A stretch of DNA of 36,443 nucleotides from a virus: the IMG/VR virus record IMGVR_UViG_3300045988_129709; one strand, 5' to 3'. Numbering within the stretch: position 1 is the first letter of the stretch; every line of letters begins with the position of its first letter. A program made the translations under genes and the position numbers. Shown here piece by piece: positions 568-26,581 of the stretch. The notes under the pieces are model-generated. The model worked only from the letters and a program-made list of their open reading frames with translations, did not search any database and had not been told where the DNA came from.

Positions 568-1665
568 ATGAAAGATAAGAAAATAAAAGTAGCAGACAAT
601 AGTATGGTATATTTTAATGATAAAGTTCTTGGAATAGATGGAGAAAATTTACAGGGAAAAATAATATTCTATTTTGAGAACTTTAAAAATGGAGTAGCAT
701 GGTTAGAATTTGAAAAAGAAGATGGAACAAAAAAGTACATACCAATGGATAAAGTAAATGAAACATATGAGGTAGAAATAAAACCAAGCTTACTTTCAGA
801 TACGTCAATAATATATTTGCAACTAAGAATAACAGAAGATGAAAACGAAAACGGAATACCAGTGTTTAAATCAAAAAAATTCTATATGAATATCTTGGAT
901 TCAATAAATGCAACATCTACAATAGAAGAAGATTACCCTGATATTTTAGATGTTTTAAACAATAAGCAAGACAAGTTAAAAGCAGGGAAAAATATAACAA
1001 TAGGAAACAACGTAATAAGTGCAAATTTTAAAGAAACAGCAGATAAAGAATACGTTGATAATCAAGACAAAGATATACTAAAAAGTGCTAAAGAATATGC
1101 TGATAATCAAGTACCAAATGTAGTTGAAACATATGTAAATGAACATAAAGAAGAACTAAAGGGAGAAAAAGGAGACATTGGAGAAACTGGACCTCAGGGA
1201 ATACAAGGACCTAAAGGCGATGTTGGTCCTCAAGGAAAACAAGGAATCCAAGGACCGATTGGACCACAAGGAGAGCAAGGAATACAAGGTATTCAAGGAG
1301 AAAAAGGTGTTGATGGAAAAAATGGAAAAGACGGTACTAATGGCAAGGATGGTATAAATGGAACTAATGGGAAAAATTATTCAGTAGAAATAGTAGAAAG
1401 TACATTGACCACACAAGAAATAGAACCAAATAAATTCTATAAATTCGGGGAAGTATCAAGTTTAAATATCACACTTGCAGCAATAACAGATACATCAGTT
1501 TTAAATGAGTTTATGTTTGAATTTATAAGTGGAGCTACTGCAACTACCTTAACTTTACCTAATACAGTTAAATGGCTAGAAACACCGACTATTGAAGCAA
1601 ACAAAATATATCAATGTAGTATAGTAGACAATATTGGTGTGTTGTTGGGGGTGTCAAATGTCTAA
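568..1665 (+). CDS. Tail fibre protein with collagen-like Gly-X-Y triple-helix repeats (about 25 G-X-Y units, residues about 195-270)
   Basis: The uninterrupted run [72 protein letters not shown]. Such collagen-like stretches are typical of Firmicute phage fibre proteins. Confidence 0.8.
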
Positions 1666-2646: not shown

Positions 2647-2862
2647 TTGGAAGCAGTAAAAAAAGAAATGAAGGAAAATCAAAAAGAACATGACAAAACA
2701 TATTTGACAGATTTTCTATCTGACATAGAAAACAAACAACCAAAGTCAGATATTCAAATTAAAAGAGCTTATGAAATATATGAAGAATATACAAACCTTA
2801 AAGGAAATTCATATGTACATAGTAAATGGGAAGAATTAGAAAAGAAAGGGGCATTGAAATGA
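2647..2862 (+). CDS. Hypothetical soluble 71-aa protein immediately upstream of lysin (not holin-like)
   Basis: ORF with a TTG start. Its stop overlaps the lysin start codon (ATGA). No hydrophobic segment. Confidence 0.4.
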   Translation: MEAVKKEMKENQKEHDKTYLTDFLSDIENKQPKSDIQIKRAYEIYEEYTNLKGNSYVHSKWEELEKKGALK

Positions 2863-4241
2863 AAAAACAAGATAGAAATATAACCATAGCAGTTATAGTG
2901 GCTATGGTTATGATATTTTTTAGTGCAATATTTTTTATAGATGATAAGGAGCTAAAAAAAGATGTAGTAGAAAAAGTTACAGACACTGTAACAGATATAG
3001 CAACAAGAGAAATGAGTAAAGAAGAAATAGAATCTTTACCATCTACAGAAATAATAGAACAAACAGAAGAACAAGAGAATGCTGTATCAAATGAGCAAGA
3101 AGGAGAAGAAACAGAAGGATTTCAACTTCAAGGAGAAATAGCTTATGAAGGAGCAAAAGCAGAAACTTGGAATGTAGAATTAGGGGACTATGTTGGATTA
3201 ACATATTATTCACAATTAGATAGTAGATGGGCAAGCAAGATGTATTCTAGTGTAGGCAATCCAAACCAAACAATAGGTTCTAGTGCTTGTGGCCCTACAT
3301 GTGCTTCAATGGTAGTAACAGCTACAAAAGGAGCAATAACACCTGATACTATGTCAGATTTATTCGTAAAATACGGTTATCGTTCAGCTAACAATGGAAC
3401 GTACTGGAGTGCTTTTAGAGCTGTAGCAGATGAGTTCAATATCGGTTATACAGAAATAACAGATATTCAAAGAGCATTACAATTATTGCAAAACAATAAT
3501 TATGTAATAGTAAGTTGTGGAAACGGATTGTTTACAACGGGTGGACACTTTATCGTTCTAGTTGGAATAGATGGAGATACATTAAAGATATATGATCCAT
3601 ATTTATATAGTGGCAAATTCTCAACAAGTACAAGAAGAGGCAAAGTAACTGTAGATGGAAATACAGTATATTGTAGCATAGACAATTTTAGAAACTATGC
3701 TAATTATAGTAAATTCTTTGCATTTGCTCATGATGGAAATGTACAAGTAAACAACACACGTCCAGTTACAACACAAGCATATACTAGATATGTAAATGCT
3801 AAAATAGGATTAAATATAAGAAATAAGCCTAATGGATATATTGTAGGTGGATTATCTAATGGTACAGCAGTAACAGTATATGAAACAGATGGCAATTGGA
3901 GTAGAATAGGGACAAATAAATGGGTTTCTAGTAATTATCTAACAAGTTATATGGCTGTAGCTTCAAATTCGGTTAAAACAATTTCTGGCGTAAAATACAC
4001 TACAGGAAAATACAAAGTTAATGCTAGTATATTAAATGTTCGTACAGGTCCAAGTACAAAATATAAAATAAAAGGATATAAACAATTAACAGCAAATGCA
4101 AGATACCAAAATAAAAGATTAGGAAATCAATATACTAATGGATTAAAACGTGGAGTAGTAACAACAGTTACTAAAGTTCAAAATGGATTTGGATTAATTC
4201 CAAGTGGGTGGATTTCATTAAATTATTGTACTAAATTATAA
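2859..4241 (+). CDS. Cell-wall hydrolase/endolysin: N-terminal signal-anchor TM segment, papain-like cysteine peptidase (C39-like) domain, two C-terminal SH3b domains
   Basis: MKKQDRNITIAVIVAMVMIFFSAIFFI is a TM segment. SSACGPTCASMV...GGHFIVLVGIDGD is a Cys/His peptidase core. The YTRYVNAKIGLNIRNKPNG...SNYL and YKVNASILNVRTGPSTKYK...GWISLNY motifs are SH3_3-like. The start has the RBS AAGAAAGGGG. Confidence 0.75.
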   Translation: MKKQDRNITIAVIVAMVMIFFSAIFFIDDKELKKDVVEKVTDTVTDIATREMSKEEIESLPSTEIIEQTEEQENAVSNEQEGEETEGFQLQGEIAYEGAKAETWNVELGDYVGLTYYSQLDSRWASKMYSSVGNPNQTIGSSACGPTCASMVVTATKGAITPDTMSDLFVKYGYRSANNGTYWSAFRAVADEFNIGYTEITDIQRALQLLQNNNYVIVSCGNGLFTTGGHFIVLVGIDGDTLKIYDPYLYSGKFSTSTRRGKVTVDGNTVYCSIDNFRNYANYSKFFAFAHDGNVQVNNTRPVTTQAYTRYVNAKIGLNIRNKPNGYIVGGLSNGTAVTVYETDGNWSRIGTNKWVSSNYLTSYMAVASNSVKTISGVKYTTGKYKVNASILNVRTGPSTKYKIKGYKQLTANARYQNKRLGNQYTNGLKRGVVTTVTKVQNGFGLIPSGWISLNYCTKL

Positions 4242-4245
4242 TATT

Positions 4246-4286
4246 AGAGCTAGATTAGATTAATTTCTAGTCTAGCTCTTTTTTTG
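4246..4286 (+). terminator. Rho-independent terminator after lysin
   Basis: Inverted repeat AGAGCTAGAT...TCTAGCTCT followed by T7. Confidence 0.7.
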
Positions 4287-4416
4287 TGCAAAAATGCAGT
4301 AAAATCAAGGCATATAACTTGTTGCTTTAAAAATAAAAACGGCTTAAAATTGATTGTGAAGGGTCGTTTTTTAGCTAAGTTTCAAGGAAAAATCAAATTT
4401 GTAAATTTACAAAATT

Positions 4417-4527
4417 TGTGCTATAATATTGACAGATAGAAAAAGAAATGTTACAATTTTGTCACAGAAATGTTACAAAAAAGAAATGTAATATTTATTG
4501 ACAAAAGATAATATTAATATTAATATA
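4417..4527 (+). promoter_or_regulatory. Tandem sigma-A-type promoters (TTGACA-17-TACAAT at approx 4429-4457; TTGACA-17-TAATAT at approx 4498-4526; extended -10 TGcTATAAT at approx 4419-4427) interleaved with direct repeats GAAATGTTACAA (x2, plus partial GAAATGTAATA)
   Basis: Read directly. Repeats at approx 4445-4456 and 4467-4478 lie between and overlapping the -35/-10 elements, an operator-like arrangement. Confidence 0.45.
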
Positions 4528-5007
4528 ATAAAAAAGAATAAGAGCCGAAGCCCTTATTCAATCAGTTGTTTTTTAGGAGTTTGAGATTTATTCGAATCAG
4601 TGGGATTTGGATAAATCTCAAATTTTCTTTTGGTAGACTCGTATTTAAACGAATATCCACGTTTTGAGCAAATATGTATCAAACCGTAAATTCCACCGGA
4701 AGAAAATTATTACACCTAATAACCAGAACAAATAATTTTGCATGGTGTATCCCCCTTCTTTTGTATTTGCACCAACTCATCTTGCGAAAAGTCAGGTGCA
4801 TAAAATAATATTTAAATGTTGGACATAGAAGTTTAAATACTAATCTATGCACCCAACTCGAAGGAGTAAAACAACTTGTGCTTATTATATATAAAAATAT
4901 ATACTGTGTCAACACAAAAATTGACAAAAAATAACAGTAGTCTTCGACAAATTTCAACACAACAATTCAACATAAAATGTTATAATATCATAAAGGAGAT
5001 GATAGTT

Positions 5008-7369: not shown

Positions 7370-7705
7370 CTATAGAGTGTATTGATTCCGACTCAAAATG
7401 GCTGATTTTAGTTTCTCAAAAGGAATTAATACAAAATAAGACCACTTTTTAGCCCTATATTCTTGTTTATTAATTAAGATTTTATCAGTACAGTTAATTG
7501 AGTATGTTGCATCTTGATAATAATGACCTAATTCTTCTGATAAAGTTTCTTTTTCTATATATGAGTTATCTATATTTGTATAATTTAATGCAATAGCATT
7601 TATTTTATCTATATTTATAAAACAACCATACGCATCTTCTATATAATAATCATAAATTTTAATATGTTCTTTTTCAGCTAAATCATATAAATTATTTAGA
7701 TTCAT
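7370..7705 (-). CDS. ImmA/IrrE (DUF955)-like metallopeptidase homologue with non-canonical motif EELGH in place of HExxH
   Basis: Layout ...GCFINIDKINAIALNYTNIDN..ETLSEELGHYYQD parallels the ImmA core. It lies downstream of the CI-like repressor and upstream of int, as in ICEBs1-type immR-immA-int modules. Confidence 0.45.
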   Translation of the reverse strand: MNLNNLYDLAEKEHIKIYDYYIEDAYGCFINIDKINAIALNYTNIDNSYIEKETLSEELGHYYQDATYSINCTDKILINKQEYRAKKWSYFVLIPFEKLKSAILSRNQYTL

Positions 7706-7716
7706 ATTCCCTCCAA

Positions 7717-8196
7717 TTAAATACTATTTATAAAAGTATTATAGTAAGATTTGCATAAGTCAATATTAGATTTTGACATTTCGTTCAAATATGATTGAAA
7801 CTCAAAATATAAATTATTAATTCTATTTTCTTTGCCTCTTTTTGTTTTTAATTTTTTTAATTTAATATCTAAACTTTCCCAAGCTCTATCTATCATTAAA
7901 TTTGTTTCTCTTTCTTTGTTCTGCATTAAATAAACAAGAGTAGAGGAAGGAGTTCTACCTTTAAATTTTAAAAATCTTTCTAAATTAGAAAGATTCTTTG
8001 TTTCATGCAATAAAATAGAATATCTTTCAAAGAAAATTTTAGGATTTGCAGTAGTATTAACTATTTTTGTTGATTCATTGCAATGTTTTAAAAATTGATT
8101 GGCATAAAATTCAGCCTCTTTCTTGTTTGAAATTTTTATGATAGTACCATCTATATTAATATTAGTAGTTTTATTAAAAAAATCTATTAATCTCAT
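7717..8196 (-). CDS. Hypothetical 159-aa protein inserted between repressor and ImmA-like gene
   Basis: ORF with no recognisable motif. Its position in the lysogeny operon suggests a lysogen-expressed function. Confidence 0.45.
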   Translation of the reverse strand: MRLIDFFNKTTNINIDGTIIKISNKKEAEFYANQFLKHCNESTKIVNTTANPKIFFERYSILLHETKNLSNLERFLKFKGRTPSSTLVYLMQNKERETNLMIDRAWESLDIKLKKLKTKRGKENRINNLYFEFQSYLNEMSKSNIDLCKSYYNTFINSI

Positions 8197-8197
8197 A

Positions 8198-8545
8198 TTA
8201 TTTATTATCCTTTTTATTGTCTTTTAAGACCACTTCAAGCAATCCTTTAATTTGTTGTTTTTGTGTTTCAGTAGGAGGGGTATAATCTTTCATACTAAAT
8301 CCTATTTTGGCTAAACCTAGAGGATCAGATTCTTTGGGTTTTCTTTCATCTGACTTACCTAATAGGAAATCTACACTACAGTCAAGTATCTCTGATAATT
8401 TACTTAAAATATCTATTGAAGGCATATTTTTATTATTTTCGTAATTAGCAATATTTGAACGTGATGTATCAATTTTTTTTGCAAGTTCTTCTTGAGTTAG
8501 ATTGCAATCTTGTCTAATTTTTTTTAAATTATCTCCAAAACTCAT
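8198..8545 (-). CDS. CI-like XRE-family repressor (HTH N-terminus)
   Basis: LTQEELAKKIDTSRSNIANYENNKNMPSIDILSKLSEIL is an HTH_3 motif. It is divergent from the cro-like gene. Confidence 0.8.
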   Translation of the reverse strand: MSFGDNLKKIRQDCNLTQEELAKKIDTSRSNIANYENNKNMPSIDILSKLSEILDCSVDFLLGKSDERKPKESDPLGLAKIGFSMKDYTPPTETQKQQIKGLLEVVLKDNKKDNK

Positions 8546-17075: not shown

Positions 17076-17651
17076 ATGTATGTAGATATATATAACACAA
17101 ATAAAAAATATAACATAATTTATGCAGACCCACCGTGGTCATACAAGCAAAAACAAATAAACTTTCAACATTACGACAGGGGTAAGAAATATATTAATAG
17201 CGTTAATGAACATTATAATACAATGTCTAATAACGAACTAATTGAAATGAAAGAAGTAATAAACAATATATCAGAAAAAGACTGTTTATTGTTTATGTGG
17301 GCAACATCTCCAAATTTAGATGTAGCACTTGATTTGGGCAAAGAATGGGGATTTGAGTTCAAGACAGTGGCATTTGTGTGGGATAAACAAAGAACAAATT
17401 ATGGATTTTATACATTAAGTCAATGTGAATTGTGCTTAGTATTCAAGAAAGGTAAAATACCGAAAAAACAGGCTAATAATATTAAACAATTCTTAAGTAA
17501 AAAAGTAGAAAAACACAGCAAAAAACCAGATGAGATTCGAGAAAGAATAGATGCAATGTTTAATAAGTGTTCTCGAATAGAATTATTTGCAAGACAAACA
17601 GTAGATGGGTGGGATTGTTGGGGAAATGAAGTAGGAGGAGAAGATGAATAG
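17076..17651 (+). CDS. MT-A70-family N6-adenine DNA methyltransferase
   Basis: IIYADPPWSY is the DPPW catalytic motif. WGFEF...FVWDK is the conserved downstream block. Confidence 0.85.
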   Translation: MYVDIYNTNKKYNIIYADPPWSYKQKQINFQHYDRGKKYINSVNEHYNTMSNNELIEMKEVINNISEKDCLLFMWATSPNLDVALDLGKEWGFEFKTVAFVWDKQRTNYGFYTLSQCELCLVFKKGKIPKKQANNIKQFLSKKVEKHSKKPDEIRERIDAMFNKCSRIELFARQTVDGWDCWGNEVGGEDE

Positions 17652-20100: not shown

Positions 20101-20327
20101 TTAGTTATTACCAGTATGCTAGGTAACTGATAATATAAAAAAGGTAGTTGTATTTAGTTGAGTATAATTGACCTCCTTTCAGTATTAAATTTGCCAAAGA
20201 ACTTTCCTAGCGAGTTCTAATATCTAGGTAAAGTCTTGATAGTAAGATGCGGGTCTTGGACACCTGAGAGTGTAGGTGTAACTCCTACTACCTAGACCAA
20301 AATGTTTATAAGAAAAGAGGTAATAAT

Positions 20328-22612: not shown

Positions 22613-24091
22613 ATGAATAATGTAGTATTAAAATATTTAAAAAGCAAAGGATATAATACAGTATCGACAGATTATTATAATTTTGTGGAAACATGGGAGT
22701 CTTGGTGGAAAAATCAAGTAGACTTTCATAAATATCATGACCAAACAGGAAAAGAAAGAAAAATGTTTAGTCTAGGCATGGCAAAAAGACTAGCAGAGGA
22801 TTGGTCAAGTATATTATTTACAGAAAGAGACGAAATAACAACAAAAGCGAACACGAACGAACAAACTGAGGTAAATAATGAATATTTAAATAATCAGTTA
22901 AAGATATTAAAAGTATATAAAGACTTACCAATAGCGATAGAAAAGGCAATGGCAATGGGAACAGCTGGGGCAACAATGAGAGTTAAACATGCAAAGGTAG
23001 ATAAACAAGGAAGGTTATCTGCGGATAAAAGAACAAAGCTAGATATTATTTATTTAGACGCAAACCAAATTGTGCCTTTAAAAGTTGAACATGGAGTAAT
23101 AATTGATGTTGCTTTTGTAAGTGAAAATACTATAGACAGTAAAAAGGAATATTATATTGAGTTACATCAATTAAAATATAATGAAGAATTAAATCAAGAA
23201 ATATACGAAATATCTAATAATTATTTAGATGAAAGCGGAAATGAAATAAAAAAAGAGGGCATAGCTAAGAGTTATACAGTTAATTCTAGTGTGCCTTTAT
23301 TTAGTATCTTAAAGCCAGCAATAGCAAACCCAATTGATACAGAATACAACAATGTAAACGGGATGGGATTTAGTGTATATGGAACTGCAATTGATCAACT
23401 TATGGCCTGTGATATTACATATAATAATTTTGTTATGGACTTTTACCTTGGAGGGAAAAAAGTATTTTACAATAAAAAAATAACAAGAACTAAGACGAGG
23501 CAAATAAAAGATACAGAAGGAAATATAAGAGAAGAAGAATATGAAGTATATCCTGATGATGTAATGAAACAGCAATGGACAACATACGGAGACGATGAAA
23601 TAAAAAATATAAAAGAAAATCCAGTTGTGATAGAGTATAATCCTGAACTAAGAGTAGAAGAAGACAAAGAAGGAATACAATTTGCATTAAATATGCTAAG
23701 TTTTAAGGCAGGATTAGGAACAAAATATTATGAATTTAATGGAAATTCTGTAGTAACAGCTACACAATATGTTGGAGATAGACAGGACTTAATCGAAAAC
23801 GCTAACAAACACCGCAAGAGTGTTGATGAATTTGTAAGTGGAATATGCAAAGCTATTCTTTTACTAGGAAGAGTATTATTCAAAGAAAAAGTAACAGAAG
23901 ATTGTATTGCAACAATAACAGACAAAGATGGTTTTATGGTTGATACAGAAACGGCAAAACAGGAATTTAGGCAAGATATAGCACAAGGAATAAGACAAGC
24001 TTGGGAATATAGAGTTAAATTCTTAGGGGAGACAGAAGAAAAAGCCAAGGCAATGATAAAAGATGAAGAAATAGAAGATATTGAAGAATAA
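22613..24091 (+). CDS. Portal protein (SPP1 gp6-like)
   Basis: The N-terminus KYLKSKGYNTVSTDYYNFVETWESWWKNQVDFHKYH is typical of SPP1-type portals. It follows terL. Confidence 0.85.
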   Translation: MNNVVLKYLKSKGYNTVSTDYYNFVETWESWWKNQVDFHKYHDQTGKERKMFSLGMAKRLAEDWSSILFTERDEITTKANTNEQTEVNNEYLNNQLKILKVYKDLPIAIEKAMAMGTAGATMRVKHAKVDKQGRLSADKRTKLDIIYLDANQIVPLKVEHGVIIDVAFVSENTIDSKKEYYIELHQLKYNEELNQEIYEISNNYLDESGNEIKKEGIAKSYTVNSSVPLFSILKPAIANPIDTEYNNVNGMGFSVYGTAIDQLMACDITYNNFVMDFYLGGKKVFYNKKITRTKTRQIKDTEGNIREEEYEVYPDDVMKQQWTTYGDDEIKNIKENPVVIEYNPELRVEEDKEGIQFALNMLSFKAGLGTKYYEFNGNSVVTATQYVGDRQDLIENANKHRKSVDEFVSGICKAILLLGRVLFKEKVTEDCIATITDKDGFMVDTETAKQEFRQDIAQGIRQAWEYRVKFLGETEEKAKAMIKDEEIEDIEE

Positions 24092-24103: not shown

Positions 24104-25711
24104 ATGTTAACACCGGAATATTTGAATTTAATAGAATTTAATGATGTTGTGAATTTATACAACAAGTTAAATATAGATATAACAGCAGATATAATTACAA
24201 GAATAAGCACAATGGATGATATTACAGAAGTAAGTCGCAAACAAATGAAGATATTATTACAGACAAACGGAGCAGAAGTATTTAATAAAGCATTAGAAAA
24301 GACATCATTGTTAACAAGAGAAACAAAAAATGCATTAAAGCTATTATTTGAAAATATGGCAAAAGAAGATATGCAAGGATATAAAGAATTGTATAAATAC
24401 AGGGATAAACTTTTCAAATTAAGTGAAAATCAATATAAGATACTTAATCAAGGATTAAAACAAACTAATAAAACACTAAAGAACATGACAAATACTATAG
24501 CTTTTCAAAGTCAACAAGCATATGTTAACGCAGTAGATGAAGCATATATGAAAGTTATAAGTGGTGCATTTGATTATACGTCTGCTATTAATACAGCTGT
24601 ACAACAATTAGCAGACAAAGGAATAACATTAAAAGATAAACTGGGAAGAAATATACAATTAGAAACAGCAGTAAGAAGAAATGTGTTAAGTGGTATTCAT
24701 GCAACAGCAAACAATATAAATAGAAACATAGAAACAGAGTTAGGTTGCGATGGATATGAGGTTACAGCACATCTAGGGGCAAGACCAAGCCATGCAGAAG
24801 AACAAGGAAAACAATTTGCAGTAAGTAAGAAAGATGCTGGCAAATATGGTTTAGAGTTATGGTCAGATGTTGCAGAATTATGGGAAGAGTACAATTGTAG
24901 ACATAGCTATTTTGGAATAATCTTAGGGGTTTCAGAACCAGTATATACAAATAATGAATTAGAAAAGTTTAAGAATGCAACAGTTACACTAAATGGAAAA
25001 CAAGTACCATATTATAAAGCAACTCAAAGACAAAGACAATTTGAAAGTGATATAAGAAATACAAAACGAAGTATACAAACATTAGATAAAGCAGGCATAG
25101 ACTCATCAAATCAAAGAAGTAAATTAAGACAATTGCAAATGAAACAAACAGCATTTTGCAAAGAGACAGGACTTGAAAAAGATTATTCAAGAATGAAAAT
25201 TGCAAAAATTAAGACAAACGAACAAGCAAAGTATAAAGATATAACAGAACAATTTAATTCAGTAAAGAAATATAAAGTTAAACAGCAACAATACTACAAA
25301 GATACTCAAGGAACTAAATACTTTGTAGATGGAAAAAATGTTTTGATGGAACCATCAGACAGAGAAAGAGAAGTAGCTAAAATTCTTGGAAAAGCTTTTG
25401 GAGGACAAGTAAATATAATACCAAGAATAAATAATCCAGCAAGTATAAAAACACCAGATTATATTATTAACAATGAAAGATTTGACTTAAAAGAAATTAC
25501 TGGTAAAGGTAAATATGTAATAGAAGGTAATTTAAGGAAAAAGAAAAACCAAGCAAATAATTTTATTATAGATGTAACAAATACTAAAATGGATCCAAAA
25601 GAAATAGAAAGGCAAATAAAAAGTATTTATATTTCAAAAAGATTTATGTGGATTGATAAGATATTTGTCATAAAAGAAAACAAAATAATAAATGCATATA
25701 AAAGAAAATAA
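24104..25711 (+). CDS. Minor head protein (Mu F / SPP1 gp7 family) with about 180-aa C-terminal extension carrying a PD-(D/E)xK-like motif set (E...PD...DLK)
   Basis: The MuF core contains ...GIHATANNINRNIETELGCDGYEVTAHLGARPSHAEEQGKQF. The C-terminus contains EREVAKILGKAFGGQVNIIPR...KTPDYIINNERFDLKEITGKG. Confidence 0.8.
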   Translation: MLTPEYLNLIEFNDVVNLYNKLNIDITADIITRISTMDDITEVSRKQMKILLQTNGAEVFNKALEKTSLLTRETKNALKLLFENMAKEDMQGYKELYKYRDKLFKLSENQYKILNQGLKQTNKTLKNMTNTIAFQSQQAYVNAVDEAYMKVISGAFDYTSAINTAVQQLADKGITLKDKLGRNIQLETAVRRNVLSGIHATANNINRNIETELGCDGYEVTAHLGARPSHAEEQGKQFAVSKKDAGKYGLELWSDVAELWEEYNCRHSYFGIILGVSEPVYTNNELEKFKNATVTLNGKQVPYYKATQRQRQFESDIRNTKRSIQTLDKAGIDSSNQRSKLRQLQMKQTAFCKETGLEKDYSRMKIAKIKTNEQAKYKDITEQFNSVKKYKVKQQQYYKDTQGTKYFVDGKNVLMEPSDREREVAKILGKAFGGQVNIIPRINNPASIKTPDYIINNERFDLKEITGKGKYVIEGNLRKKKNQANNFIIDVTNTKMDPKEIERQIKSIYISKRFMWIDKIFVIKENKIINAYKRK

Positions 25712-25763
25712 TTGAAGGTCAACTGCGAACCAAATATATGGGGTTCTCAACTGACCTTCAATA
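25711..25763 (+). promoter_or_regulatory. Long imperfect hairpin (11-bp outer stem ATTGAAGGTCA/TGACCTTCAAT, inner stem GAACC/GGTTC) abutting the MuF stop codon
   Basis: Read directly. It contains the direct repeat TCAACTG x2. Confidence 0.5.
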
Positions 25764-25870
25764 ATAATATTATTAACTTAATTATACAATAAATTAGGCT
25801 AATAATCAATAGTTTATGCAAAAAAATACAATTTATACATTAAATTAGTTATTAACATTTTAATATATAT

Positions 25871-25896
25871 AAGAAGCTGACGAGCTTCTTTTTTAA
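25871..25896 (+). terminator. Rho-independent terminator AAGAAGCT-GACG-AGCTTCTT + T6
   Basis: Read directly. It lies inside the late operon between the MuF and scaffold genes. Confidence 0.6.
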
Positions 25897-26017
25897 TGTC
25901 TTTTTTCAATTAGACGTAAAAGAAATTGAAATGTTGGGCATACGACGTTAAAAATAGCAAATATTATCAAATTCGAGGGAAGAAAAACCCGTAGAAAATC
26001 GTAGGAGGAGAAATATT

Positions 26018-26581
26018 ATGAAAAGAAGTTTTTTAGAAGGATTATTCAAAGATTTAGAAGCGGAGGATAGCGTTAAGAAAAATATCATTGATAGCATTAT
26101 GACTGAAAATGGTAATGATGTTAACGCAGAAAAAACAAAAACTTTAACTGCACAAAATGATTTAAAAGTAAAGGAAGGATTAATCGAAGAACTAAACAAA
26201 AAAATAAAAGAAAATGGCTCTGTCGATATAGAAGAAATCAAAAGAGTAGCTAAAGAGGAAGGCTTTGCCGAAGGTTCTAAAGAAGTTGAAGAATTTAAGA
26301 AAACAAACGCACTAAAAAGTTCCATAAAAGGAGCAAAAGACTTTGACTTAGTTTATAGCAAACTAGACAAAGACAAAATTAAATATGAAAAAAATGATAA
26401 AGGAGAGTACACAGTAAGTGGCATTGATGAACAAATCAAAGATGTCAAAGAAAAGTATTCTTTTTTGTTTGATGAAGAAGATGATGGAAACTCAGAAATT
26501 AATCTTGGTGGAAATCATACAGAAAAACCACAAGATACAACTCCAACGTTATATGGAGCATTAAAAGAAAAATTTAATTAA
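26018..26581 (+). CDS. Scaffolding protein
   Basis: Acidic, helical, K/E-rich. It lies between the portal/MuF genes and the major capsid gene. Confidence 0.65.
   Translation: MKRSFLEGLFKDLEAEDSVKKNIIDSIMTENGNDVNAEKTKTLTAQNDLKVKEGLIEELNKKIKENGSVDIEEIKRVAKEEGFAEGSKEVEEFKKTNALKSSIKGAKDFDLVYSKLDKDKIKYEKNDKGEYTVSGIDEQIKDVKEKYSFLFDEEDDGNSEINLGGNHTEKPQDTTPTLYGALKEKFN

Follow-up and report, generated by a model that had tools for sequence, protein, structure and literature searches.

The MuF-toxin gene and the gap behind it

The stretch of viral DNA studied here, IMG/VR record IMGVR_UViG_3300045988_129709 (36,443 nucleotides (nt), below called the window), is that of a temperate siphovirus-like phage, and the head module in this 36-kb window holds a portal gene, a gene for a MuF minor head protein that ends in a toxin domain, and a scaffold gene. 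The subject of this text is the second of these genes, here called the MuF-toxin gene, together with the noncoding element directly behind it, in which we predict a small-RNA gene on the opposite strand. The MuF-toxin gene is built up as follows, with lengths of products in amino acids (aa):

24104-25711, plus strand: MuF2-type minor head protein with C-terminal toxin domain, ATG start, 535 aa
24107-25162, plus strand: MuF2 (Phage_min_cap2) core, residues 2-353, a full-length profile match to PF06152 (E=5e-69)
25226-25708, plus strand: toxin module, residues 375-535 (161 aa), with a CdiA_C-type PD-(D/E)xK fold

The 535-aa product is matched by PHROG 581, "minor head protein". An initial annotation of this DNA had described a MuF-family minor head protein with an extension of about 180 aa past the MuF core, carrying a domain of the restriction-endonuclease fold, and the searches bear this out. 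The PF06152 match on residues 2-353 is the MuF2 of Jamet et al. 2017, and the extension is 182 aa long by the Pfam boundary. The end of the feature has to be moved, as the open reading frame (ORF) stops at 25711 and the end given at 25900 takes in the downstream gap.

Residues 449-528 match the Pfam family PF18451 (CdiA_C) with E=9e-17 and 61.5 bits, as compared to a cutoff of 26.6. The nuclease motifs pointed out in the initial annotation are real and lie at residues 421-429 (EREVAKILG), 449-455 (KTPDYII) and 458-467 (ERFDLKEITG). In an alignment of 30 homologues E421, P451-D452-Y453, D461-L462-K463, Q483 and D490 are invariant, which shows that the motifs are a signature of the family and not a product of chance. 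The predicted catalytic motif (E421, D452, D461 and K463) is intact; all four residues are invariant, so the catalytic set is not mutated. The AlphaFold (AF2) model of residues 375-535 has a mean pLDDT of 93.1, and in a Foldseek comparison with solved structures its sole significant match is 4G6V chain A (E=3.8e-5, probability 1.0, TM 0.53/0.62), every other match being at E=0.3 or above. The same chain is also retrieved by a sequence-only search, at an identity of only about 27%. 4G6V is the CdiA-CT of B. pseudomallei 1026b, a PD-(D/E)xK enzyme that cuts tRNA-Ala in the acceptor stem, and PF18451 is present in CdiA and SitA3 toxins; no model for the domain was found in PADLOC or NCBIfam. It is most likely that the toxin module is a PD-(D/E)xK nuclease acting as a tRNase, and we infer both its toxicity and its tRNase activity by analogy with these relatives.

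The toxin module and CdiA-CT(II) of Bp1026b belong to the same Pfam family, and their acidic residues align, the PD of the window with D214 and its FD, nine residues later, with D223. The conserved Q-A-x-N helix is also shared. In contrast, the window family has an invariant lysine, K463, in the classical D-x-K position, where Bp1026b has a Y. The Bp1026b toxin is said, in work by Morse from 2012, to use a later helix lysine, K242; the equivalent of this residue in the window, K479, is not conserved in the homologue alignment. The two also differ in delivery, which for the window protein would be by the phage capsid or not at all instead of by CdiB/CdiA, and in the window there is no CdiI-like protein.

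The MuF superfamily of Jamet et al. 2017 (PMC5576092) includes MuF1 (PF04233), MuF2 (PF06152), MuF3 and MuF4; the muf genes follow portal genes, and cd13442, the toxin domain of Bp1026b CdiA-2, is listed on MuF proteins. For these reasons the window protein is a new member of a published class, and the polymorphic-toxin architecture recognised in the initial annotation is in itself ordinary and already published. With the other MuF polymorphic toxins it shares the N-terminal PF06152, the position of the gene after portal, the C-terminal toxin domain and the setting in a temperate Firmicute phage. It is the downstream side that differs. A small ORF of less than 150 aa, taken as the immunity protein, lies right downstream in 89.4% of the cases in that study (PMC5576092), whereas the window has no such ORF there but a conserved, predicted small-RNA gene that is convergent.

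The gap behind the gene, 25712-26017 (306 nt), holds solely TTG-started ORFs of 22-38 aa. No ATG-started ORF was found in it, and no credible ORF for a CdiI-type immunity gene directly downstream of the toxin gene. The initial annotation was right in that the roughly 300 bp after the gene code for no protein and that the canonical downstream position is without an immunity gene. It saw only a hairpin and a terminator there; both are real, but the hairpin belongs to the opposite strand, and a minus-strand promoter and a predicted small-RNA gene had been overlooked.

A predicted small-RNA gene on the opposite strand

The features in the gap that make up or adjoin the predicted gene are these:

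25809-25781, minus strand: sigma-70-type promoter, -35 TTGATT at 25809-25804, 17-nt spacer, -10 TATAAT at 25786-25781
25695-25777, minus strand: predicted small RNA of about 75-85 nt, start at about 25774-25777, 3' end at about 25697 in UUAUUUUCUUUU
25762-25775, minus strand: HP2, a short palindrome of A and U only, TAATAATATTATTA, 5' end of the predicted small RNA
25712-25761, minus strand: HP1, a long bulged hairpin abutting the toxin stop codon, seen by covariation and fold energy
25871-25895, plus strand: intrinsic terminator, stem AAGAAGCT/AGCTTCTT (25871-25890), then TTTTTT

The loci of relatives gathered in the analysis, from phages, metagenomes and chromosomes, are designated by L numbers. 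In the aligned phage and chromosomal loci the order on the plus strand is stop codon, HP1, HP2 and a near-invariant block, which in the window spans about 25772-25822 and reads AACTTAATTATACAATAAATTAGGTTAATAATCAATAGTTTATGC on the plus strand. The reverse complement of the block is TTGATT-N17-TATAAT. The promoter that sits in it lies about 70 nt past the toxin stop codon, pointing back toward the toxin gene, and was the best promoter-like site of the region in a promoter scan, with 10/12 matches. The pattern TTGAT[TA]-N17-TATAAT is found in 41 of the 42 distinct elements, and the last one has TACAAT at the same spacing. Over the 44 nt of the promoter block the mean pairwise identity is 89%, as compared to 70% for the last 450 nt of the toxin coding DNA. 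In L020 (IMGVR_UViG_3300039378_000136) a block identical to that of the window is found without hairpins or toxin. It stands there right upstream of a minus-strand ORF, which is equipped with a ribosome binding site (RBS) of its own and encodes a type IV pilin-like protein (MKLNRKGYTLIELLAVILIIGLV...), which means that it is positioned as a promoter would be; it appears that in L020 the promoter has been recombined onto another gene.

HP1 has at least five unrelated stem types, its architecture being kept. In a covariance-model alignment of 53 elements 95% of the cells are paired, and compensatory double changes are seen in 16 of the 17 pairs. The covariation score is 0.505, as compared to 0.176 when shuffled (none of 500 reach the observed value) and at most 0.147 with slid partners, and RNAalifold on a plain MAFFT alignment gave 9 compensatory pairs out of 11. 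The internal loop of HP1 is conserved and the pairs that flank it are near-invariant (U-A in 50/53, G-C in 52/53). HP2 occurs in covarying variants, TAATAAT/ATTATTA and TAATAAA/TTTATTA, with changes on both sides in four of its six pairs.

The stems also tell the two strands apart. As minus-strand RNA they hold 111 G-U pairs, which turn into A-C mismatches on the plus strand, and because of this the minus-sense fold is the more stable in 41 of 42 elements (mean -23.3 vs -17.9 kcal/mol, Wilcoxon p=2e-8). For the hairpin of the window the minus-sense fold has -24.7 kcal/mol, with z = -5.3 relative to shuffled sequences. Read on the minus strand, HP1 runs directly into the U-tract UUAUUUUCUUUU, the reverse complement of the terminal K-R-K-stop codons of the toxin; as these end codons are conserved, the hairpin always abuts the stop codon. 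HP1 was considered as the toxin gene's own terminator, and rejected because of the stabler minus sense and because no T-run follows the stem on the plus strand. We read HP1 as the body and terminator stem of a predicted antisense small RNA, the ends of which were placed by the geometry of promoter and terminator. The plus-strand terminator at 25871-25895 is located downstream of the antisense promoter, and if it is used the 3' untranslated region (UTR) of the toxin mRNA would span the whole small-RNA gene.

A covariance model of the element matches the window at 25687-25780 on the minus strand with 88.2 bits and E of about 3e-13. This is the sole strong match (E<=1e-3) in the window, and the only other one up to E=1, with 26 bits, lies on the plus strand at the same spot. 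A search of both strands of 25712-25830 against Rfam 15 was negative up to E=10, and no Rfam family reached the gathering score for the element in 11 related loci. The element is single-copy, downstream of the toxin gene and convergent with it, and no tandem repeats were seen in the gap. Sequence features that would fit the antisense RNA gene of a type I toxin-antitoxin (TA) system are present, namely a promoter, a covarying terminator hairpin and a G-U bias of the minus strand, the RNA itself being predicted from the sequence.

It is conceivable that the minus strand instead codes for a small immunity protein, for example by the 38-aa ORF at 25750-25634, and a TTG-started antisense ORF does begin within HP1 in the window and in many type-A elements. 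We hardly believe this. The start codon is buried in the stem, the length varies from 23 to 40 aa, and elements of different hairpin types do not share the reading frame. About half of the elements have no TTG at +24, and six have no antisense ORF of at least 20 aa. The transcript is also predicted to end before most of the ORF. Not being conserved across the elements, the antisense small ORF was rejected as the partner.

Another explanation places the function in the DNA itself, with hairpin and palindrome as a site for recombination or cassette mobility, like the attC of integrons. This would explain how toxin ORF and 3' element move as a unit between phages and chromosomes, and an imperfect hairpin right after a cassette-like ORF, conserved in structure rather than in sequence, is what such a site could look like; the module is also found fused, split, standalone and in tandem, in many contexts. 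Nevertheless we consider it very unlikely, as the G-U asymmetry of one strand points to RNA and the invariant -35 and -10 hexamers at a fixed 17-nt spacing point to a promoter. The L020 block, moreover, precedes its RBS-bearing minus-strand ORF as a promoter would, and the examined loci showed neither an integrase of the integron type nor R'/R'' core sites.

Distribution of the element and its surroundings

The linkage between toxin and element was followed in both directions. Among 80 genomic loci retrieved by protein alone, about 38 of the 40 closest ones (identity of at least about 44%) carry the element 57-72 nt past the stop codon. In the frameshifted L055 the element is present when the search is extended past the end of the protein match, and L062, with an intact near-clade toxin and a diverged version of the layout, is one partial exception. 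In the opposite direction, 37 loci came out of a metagenome scan that used only the promoter pattern. HP2 and HP1 follow right behind the promoter in every one of them; a convergent toxin homologue is seen in 32, and three run off the end of the contig. The remaining two, L124 and L132, are toxin remnant or deletion loci that keep the RNA gene. Among the 32, L118 and L122 keep just the last 46 or so toxin residues, and L118, L122 and L124 together retain the last 37-46 toxin residues and the RNA gene. In L132 (UMAL01083259.1, 4665-6009) the MuF protein is about 93% identical to that of the window, while the toxin domain is cleanly excised; the protein ends in ...DYSRMKIAKKMHIKEND, followed by the stop codon, and the RNA gene is kept, including the U-tract. 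The linkage is exclusive to this toxin, and the element goes with toxin genes that are fused as well as with those that stand alone, both in the chromosomes of gut bacteria and in phages. An intact near-clade toxin is almost never without the element, whereas the element can outlive the toxin, which is the pattern expected of a toxin-antitoxin pair. The terminase/portal region of L132 has no nucleotide match to the window, so this relative is a mosaic.

A search with residues 383-535 retrieved 121 proteins, mostly free-standing ones of about 161 aa with PF18451 only, and an exhaustive profile search gave 1,496 representatives of 50%-identity clusters, 641 of them at E<=1e-10. In the 150 best profile matches the aligned part extends to the C-terminus or stops no more than about 35 residues short of it; these proteins are either about 100-200 aa long, some being fragments, or 200-1,160 aa. 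The toxin module is collinear with the free-standing proteins of 160-200 aa. It occurs in three contexts: fused to MuF, as in the window; as a separate gene between a MuF gene (PF06152 or PF04233) and the scaffold gene (L007-L011); and as a solitary gene in bacterial chromosomes, adjoining ftsH, obg or genes that we take, from our own reading of their sequences, to be comM/dprA. The solitary genes of L001, L025, L031, L037, L044, L045, L056, L057 and L061 have unrelated upstream regions. TTG or GTG start codons are frequent in the standalone genes, which is consistent with a deliberately weak translation of a presumably toxic product. L041 holds two tandem toxin-plus-RNA modules of different subtypes, 3284-3836 and 4001-4553, each with its own hairpin type and the second with its toxin broken by a premature stop; they lie between the presumed comM and dprA, and the same insertion site is found in about six related genomes. 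In L007 (7139-8780), and also in L008-L010, L016 and L019, the MuF gene is split in two ORFs. In L007 a 290-aa PF06152 ORF overlaps by 11 nt a 259-aa ORF that holds the end of the MuF domain and the toxin, and either a recent disruption or a frameshift, whether programmed or not, may lie behind this split.

The distant relatives are without the conserved block, yet in them, too, a hairpin adjoins the stop codon, and a minus-strand promoter, TTGACA/TTGCAT-N17-TATAAT/TATAAA, lies about 50-75 nt past it. We scored convergent promoters uniformly, as at least 10/12 matches located 20-110 nt after the stop codon, with other genes that have comparable downstream gaps in the same loci as controls. Near-clade toxins have such a promoter in 34 of 36 cases, distant-clade toxins in 22 of 36 and the controls in 2 of 70 (distant clade vs controls, Fisher p=2e-11). 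The toxin domain is also found on the MuF proteins of 41 Streptococcus prophages. Prophage 315.6 of S. pyogenes (L141) has the promoter TTGATA-17-TATAAT 60 nt after the stop codon and the S. pneumoniae phage IPP24 (L142) has TTGAAA-17-TATAAT at 67 nt, and the hairpins of both are more stable in the minus sense. SpyM3_1432, annotated as an ORF of 62 aa (L141 2933-3121), overlaps both the hairpin and the antisense promoter predicted there, and has probably been given the wrong start. Both phages then have a conserved ORF for a hydrophobic peptide of 38-40 aa (MFIW...; L141 3006-3121, L142 3263-3385).

The other features of the window that enter the discussion are:

22613-24091, plus strand: portal gene, TIGR01542 at E=1e-24, with 87 bits vs 277 under the curated cut-off of the model
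26018-26581, plus strand: scaffold gene, PF06810
25932-26003, plus strand: GP20-b-like 5' leader of the scaffold gene, RF03003 at 24.9 bits and E=0.005, below the gathering score
6169-7242, minus strand: tyrosine integrase gene, by profile scan
8198-8545, minus strand: gene of a CI-type helix-turn-helix protein, by profile scan
7370-7705 and 7717-8196, minus strand: two ORFs of the lysogeny module, without Pfam or NCBIfam family

The end of the portal gene is separated from the start of the MuF-toxin gene by 12 nt, and profile scans show that a large terminase subunit is also encoded in the window. When 50,697 phage records were searched for near-identical phages by Megablast with the head module, no useful match came up. 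At the site equivalent to 25932-26003, GP20-b (RF03003) is above the gathering threshold in L065 (53.5 bits) and L035 (37.7 bits), and in the window this segment is probably a diverged scaffold-gene leader that lies outside the toxin module. Upstream of the integrase there are genes for a collagen-repeat protein, at the left end of the window (568-1665, plus strand), and for a Peptidase_C39_2 plus SH3 protein (2826-4241, plus strand). An MT-A70 family DNA methyltransferase is encoded at 17076-17651 (plus strand), and the replication region encodes DUF1064 and DUF4406 proteins.

It may be that the convergent RNA is real and, instead of being an antidote, has a regulatory or insulating role, for example if a strong antisense promoter and a shared hairpin interfere with transcription, or terminate it, where the MuF-toxin gene ends. 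It would then tune the dosage of the toxin or part the portal-MuF transcript from the scaffold-capsid transcript, and immunity would be needless, the fusion being made only in cells committed to lysis. The toxin does lie inside the late head operon, with a separate plus-strand terminator and the GP20-b leader before the scaffold gene, and the element persists after the deletion of the toxin in L132, so it may have a value of its own. We give this explanation a minor share of the probability, since standalone chromosomal toxins carry the element too, where there is no phage operon to insulate and the cells are not lysing. Control genes in the same loci are without convergent promoters, and tandem toxin modules have their own copy each.

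A partner in the form of a protein was sought by clustering all ORFs within 1.5 kb of 82 loci. The clusters are only phage structural genes, judged by position and size, or the presumed syntenic comM/dprA. In 17 fused loci a gene for 180-218 aa stands next to the toxin gene, and was taken as the scaffold gene from its position. The initial annotation had pointed to relatives as a place where a downstream immunity ORF might be found, but no conserved protein neighbour was seen among 46 standalone toxin loci. Their largest recurring neighbour groups have six loci each, and the three that were inspected consist of syntenic housekeeping genes, presumably comM and dprA. No CdiI-like family turned up when 20 other proteins of the window were scanned with Pfam. 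On the clustering and these scans a protein immunity partner was rejected.

An immunity protein could also be encoded elsewhere in the prophage, with the RNA element as something incidental, and the candidates are the two ORFs at 7370-7705 and 7717-8196, which are without a known family and stand in a position expressed in lysogens. Small downstream ORFs are present in both inspected streptococcal relatives, and 10.6% of the MuF toxin genes of Jamet 2017 are likewise without an adjacent small ORF. We find such a protein unlikely, as at least 46 chromosomal standalone loci have no common protein neighbour, and as it would not account for the stronger conservation of a noncoding block relative to the DNA that codes for the toxin. 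Furthermore, the two ORFs match only weakly, to capP, which we take to be an IrrE-like peptidase (E=0.008), and to Cas12d (E=8e-4). Among the three options left by the initial annotation, an absent partner and one that lies elsewhere are both less likely than a fourth, an RNA partner in the canonical place.

The window has a single tRNA gene, a tRNA-Pro(UGG)-like one at 20224-20296 (plus strand), 3.8 kb upstream of the toxin gene (Rfam tRNA 47.8 bits vs gathering 29, E=5e-9). The gene encodes its CCA and has a C1-G72 pair and an A as discriminator, but its T-loop is atypical and ARAGORN missed it. In phages that carry this toxin tRNA-Pro(UGG) genes are found repeatedly, and are located at:

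L066 4622-4698
L069 4576-4652
L070 4559-4636
L093 4585-4661
L094 4557-4633
L110 4397-4472
L130 7497-7572

In five distant MuF-toxin loci the tRNA-Pro(UGG) gene is 60-125 nt downstream of the toxin gene, and in the relatives of the window it is 4-5.6 kb upstream. In the toxin-deleted L132 the place of the tRNA is taken by an unrelated segment of 201 nt. A strict co-occurrence of tRNA-Pro(UGG) and toxin was rejected; L132 is without the tRNA, but so are L018 and L140, which carry the toxin. For a tRNase activity of the toxin the recurrence of these tRNA genes is circumstantial; one possibility is that the phage tRNA replaces a tRNA cut by the toxin.

A possible RNA partner for the toxin

We lean towards the explanation that the partner of the MuF-fused CdiA_C toxin is a convergent small RNA antitoxin of about 80 nt, which takes the place of an immunity protein. 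The small RNA would be transcribed convergently from the near-consensus promoter and consist of the short A/U hairpin, the long bulged hairpin and a U-tail that is templated by the toxin's own final codons, and over its whole length the RNA would be complementary to the toxin mRNA, at the 3' end and in the 3' UTR. In lysogens, and in carriers of the free-standing chromosomal copies, it would keep the toxin silent or harmless. This could happen in a type I-like manner, the antisense pairing triggering decay of the mRNA, or in a type III-like manner, by direct binding to the RNA-cleaving toxin. The latter is possible because the internal loop of HP1 is conserved and the relatives of the toxin bind structured RNA. 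In the lytic cycle large amounts of the MuF-toxin fusion would be produced and packaged, and presumably enter the next cell along with the DNA, in the way that has been proposed for MuF toxins generally. The transcription of the RNA, its role as antitoxin and its mechanism are what we infer from this arrangement, and no other explanation accounts as well for the standalone modules in chromosomes, the strand bias and the invariant promoter.

Several points weigh against an RNA antitoxin. The RNA is predicted from sequence only, and the covariation counts were obtained on related sequences, in an alignment fitted to the model. Coding puts a constraint on the U-tract as well, and the tract has interruptions, so that the efficiency of termination is in doubt. 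A role in regulation or insulation alone could likewise account for a conserved antisense promoter with a terminator hairpin, and known type I toxins are almost all small membrane peptides. Both 315.6 and IPP24 have small same-strand ORFs after the RNA layout, and a protein partner may coexist there. Finally, a cis-antisense RNA cannot neutralise a toxin that is injected by a superinfecting sibling phage. For this reason the RNA alone is no substitute for polymorphic-toxin immunity unless it binds the protein, and only the protein-binding mode could protect lysogens from injected toxin.

The closest analogy to the arrangement is with those type I systems in which an antisense RNA overlaps the toxin transcript at the 3' end. 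Convergent RNAs of this kind are known from par (Fst/RNA II) of pAD1 and from txpA/RatA and bsrG/SR4 of B. subtilis prophages, and SymE/SymR and RalR/RalA are type I systems with nuclease toxins. As in type I systems, the toxin gene and the predicted small-RNA gene face each other and would overlap at their 3' ends, there is a terminator hairpin in the predicted RNA, prophages and chromosomes both harbour the modules, and orphan remnants of the putative antitoxin occur. The differences are that the toxin is a soluble enzyme domain of 161 aa, and not a membrane peptide of less than 60 aa, and that it is often the C-terminus of a 535-aa virion protein, fused to about 370 aa. RalR is cited by Jamet 2017 (ref. 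44; PMC5576092). In the type III systems ToxIN, CptIN and TenpIN a structured RNA encoded beside an RNA-cleaving toxin neutralises it, a plausible analogy if the hairpin binds the tRNase-like domain. In contrast to the window RNA, which is single-copy, convergent, downstream and has its own promoter, the type III antitoxins are upstream tandem repeats on the same strand, co-transcribed with the toxin and processed by it.

A further and more tentative idea, which we hold to be possible rather than probable, is that a tRNase-like polymorphic toxin is neutralised by a dedicated structured RNA, the pair being a mobile two-part cassette that is free-standing in the chromosomes of gut Firmicutes and has repeatedly been captured at the C-termini of MuF proteins, including those of the inspected S. 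pyogenes and S. pneumoniae prophages. In its strongest version the hairpin would bind the toxin as a substrate mimic and shield lysogens from the toxin of sibling phages, and some phages would carry tRNA-Pro(UGG) to replace the tRNA destroyed by their own toxin.

To our knowledge, polymorphic toxins (those of contact-dependent inhibition, type VI secretion, Rhs and MuF) have always been described with protein immunity factors. An RNA partner is not mentioned in Jamet et al. 2017 (PMC5576092), and in the literature searched we found no RNA partner of MuF toxins and no small RNA at SpyM3_1433. While the protein belongs to a known class, no description of the antisense RNA element was found in Rfam or in this literature, and here lies the real finding.

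The pairing with protein immunity drives the annotation and the ecology of polymorphic toxins. If the RNA partner is real, "orphan" toxin genes without an immunity ORF merit a re-examination for RNA partners, and an arrangement of an enzyme toxin with a convergent structured RNA would be added to the TA systems. The family is present in cultivable pathogens, with S. pyogenes MGAS315 prophage 315.6, S. equi P9 and S. pneumoniae IPP24. An RNA antitoxin would also explain how a potentially lethal nuclease can be carried in the late operon of a prophage, or beside obg, ftsH and dprA in a chromosome.

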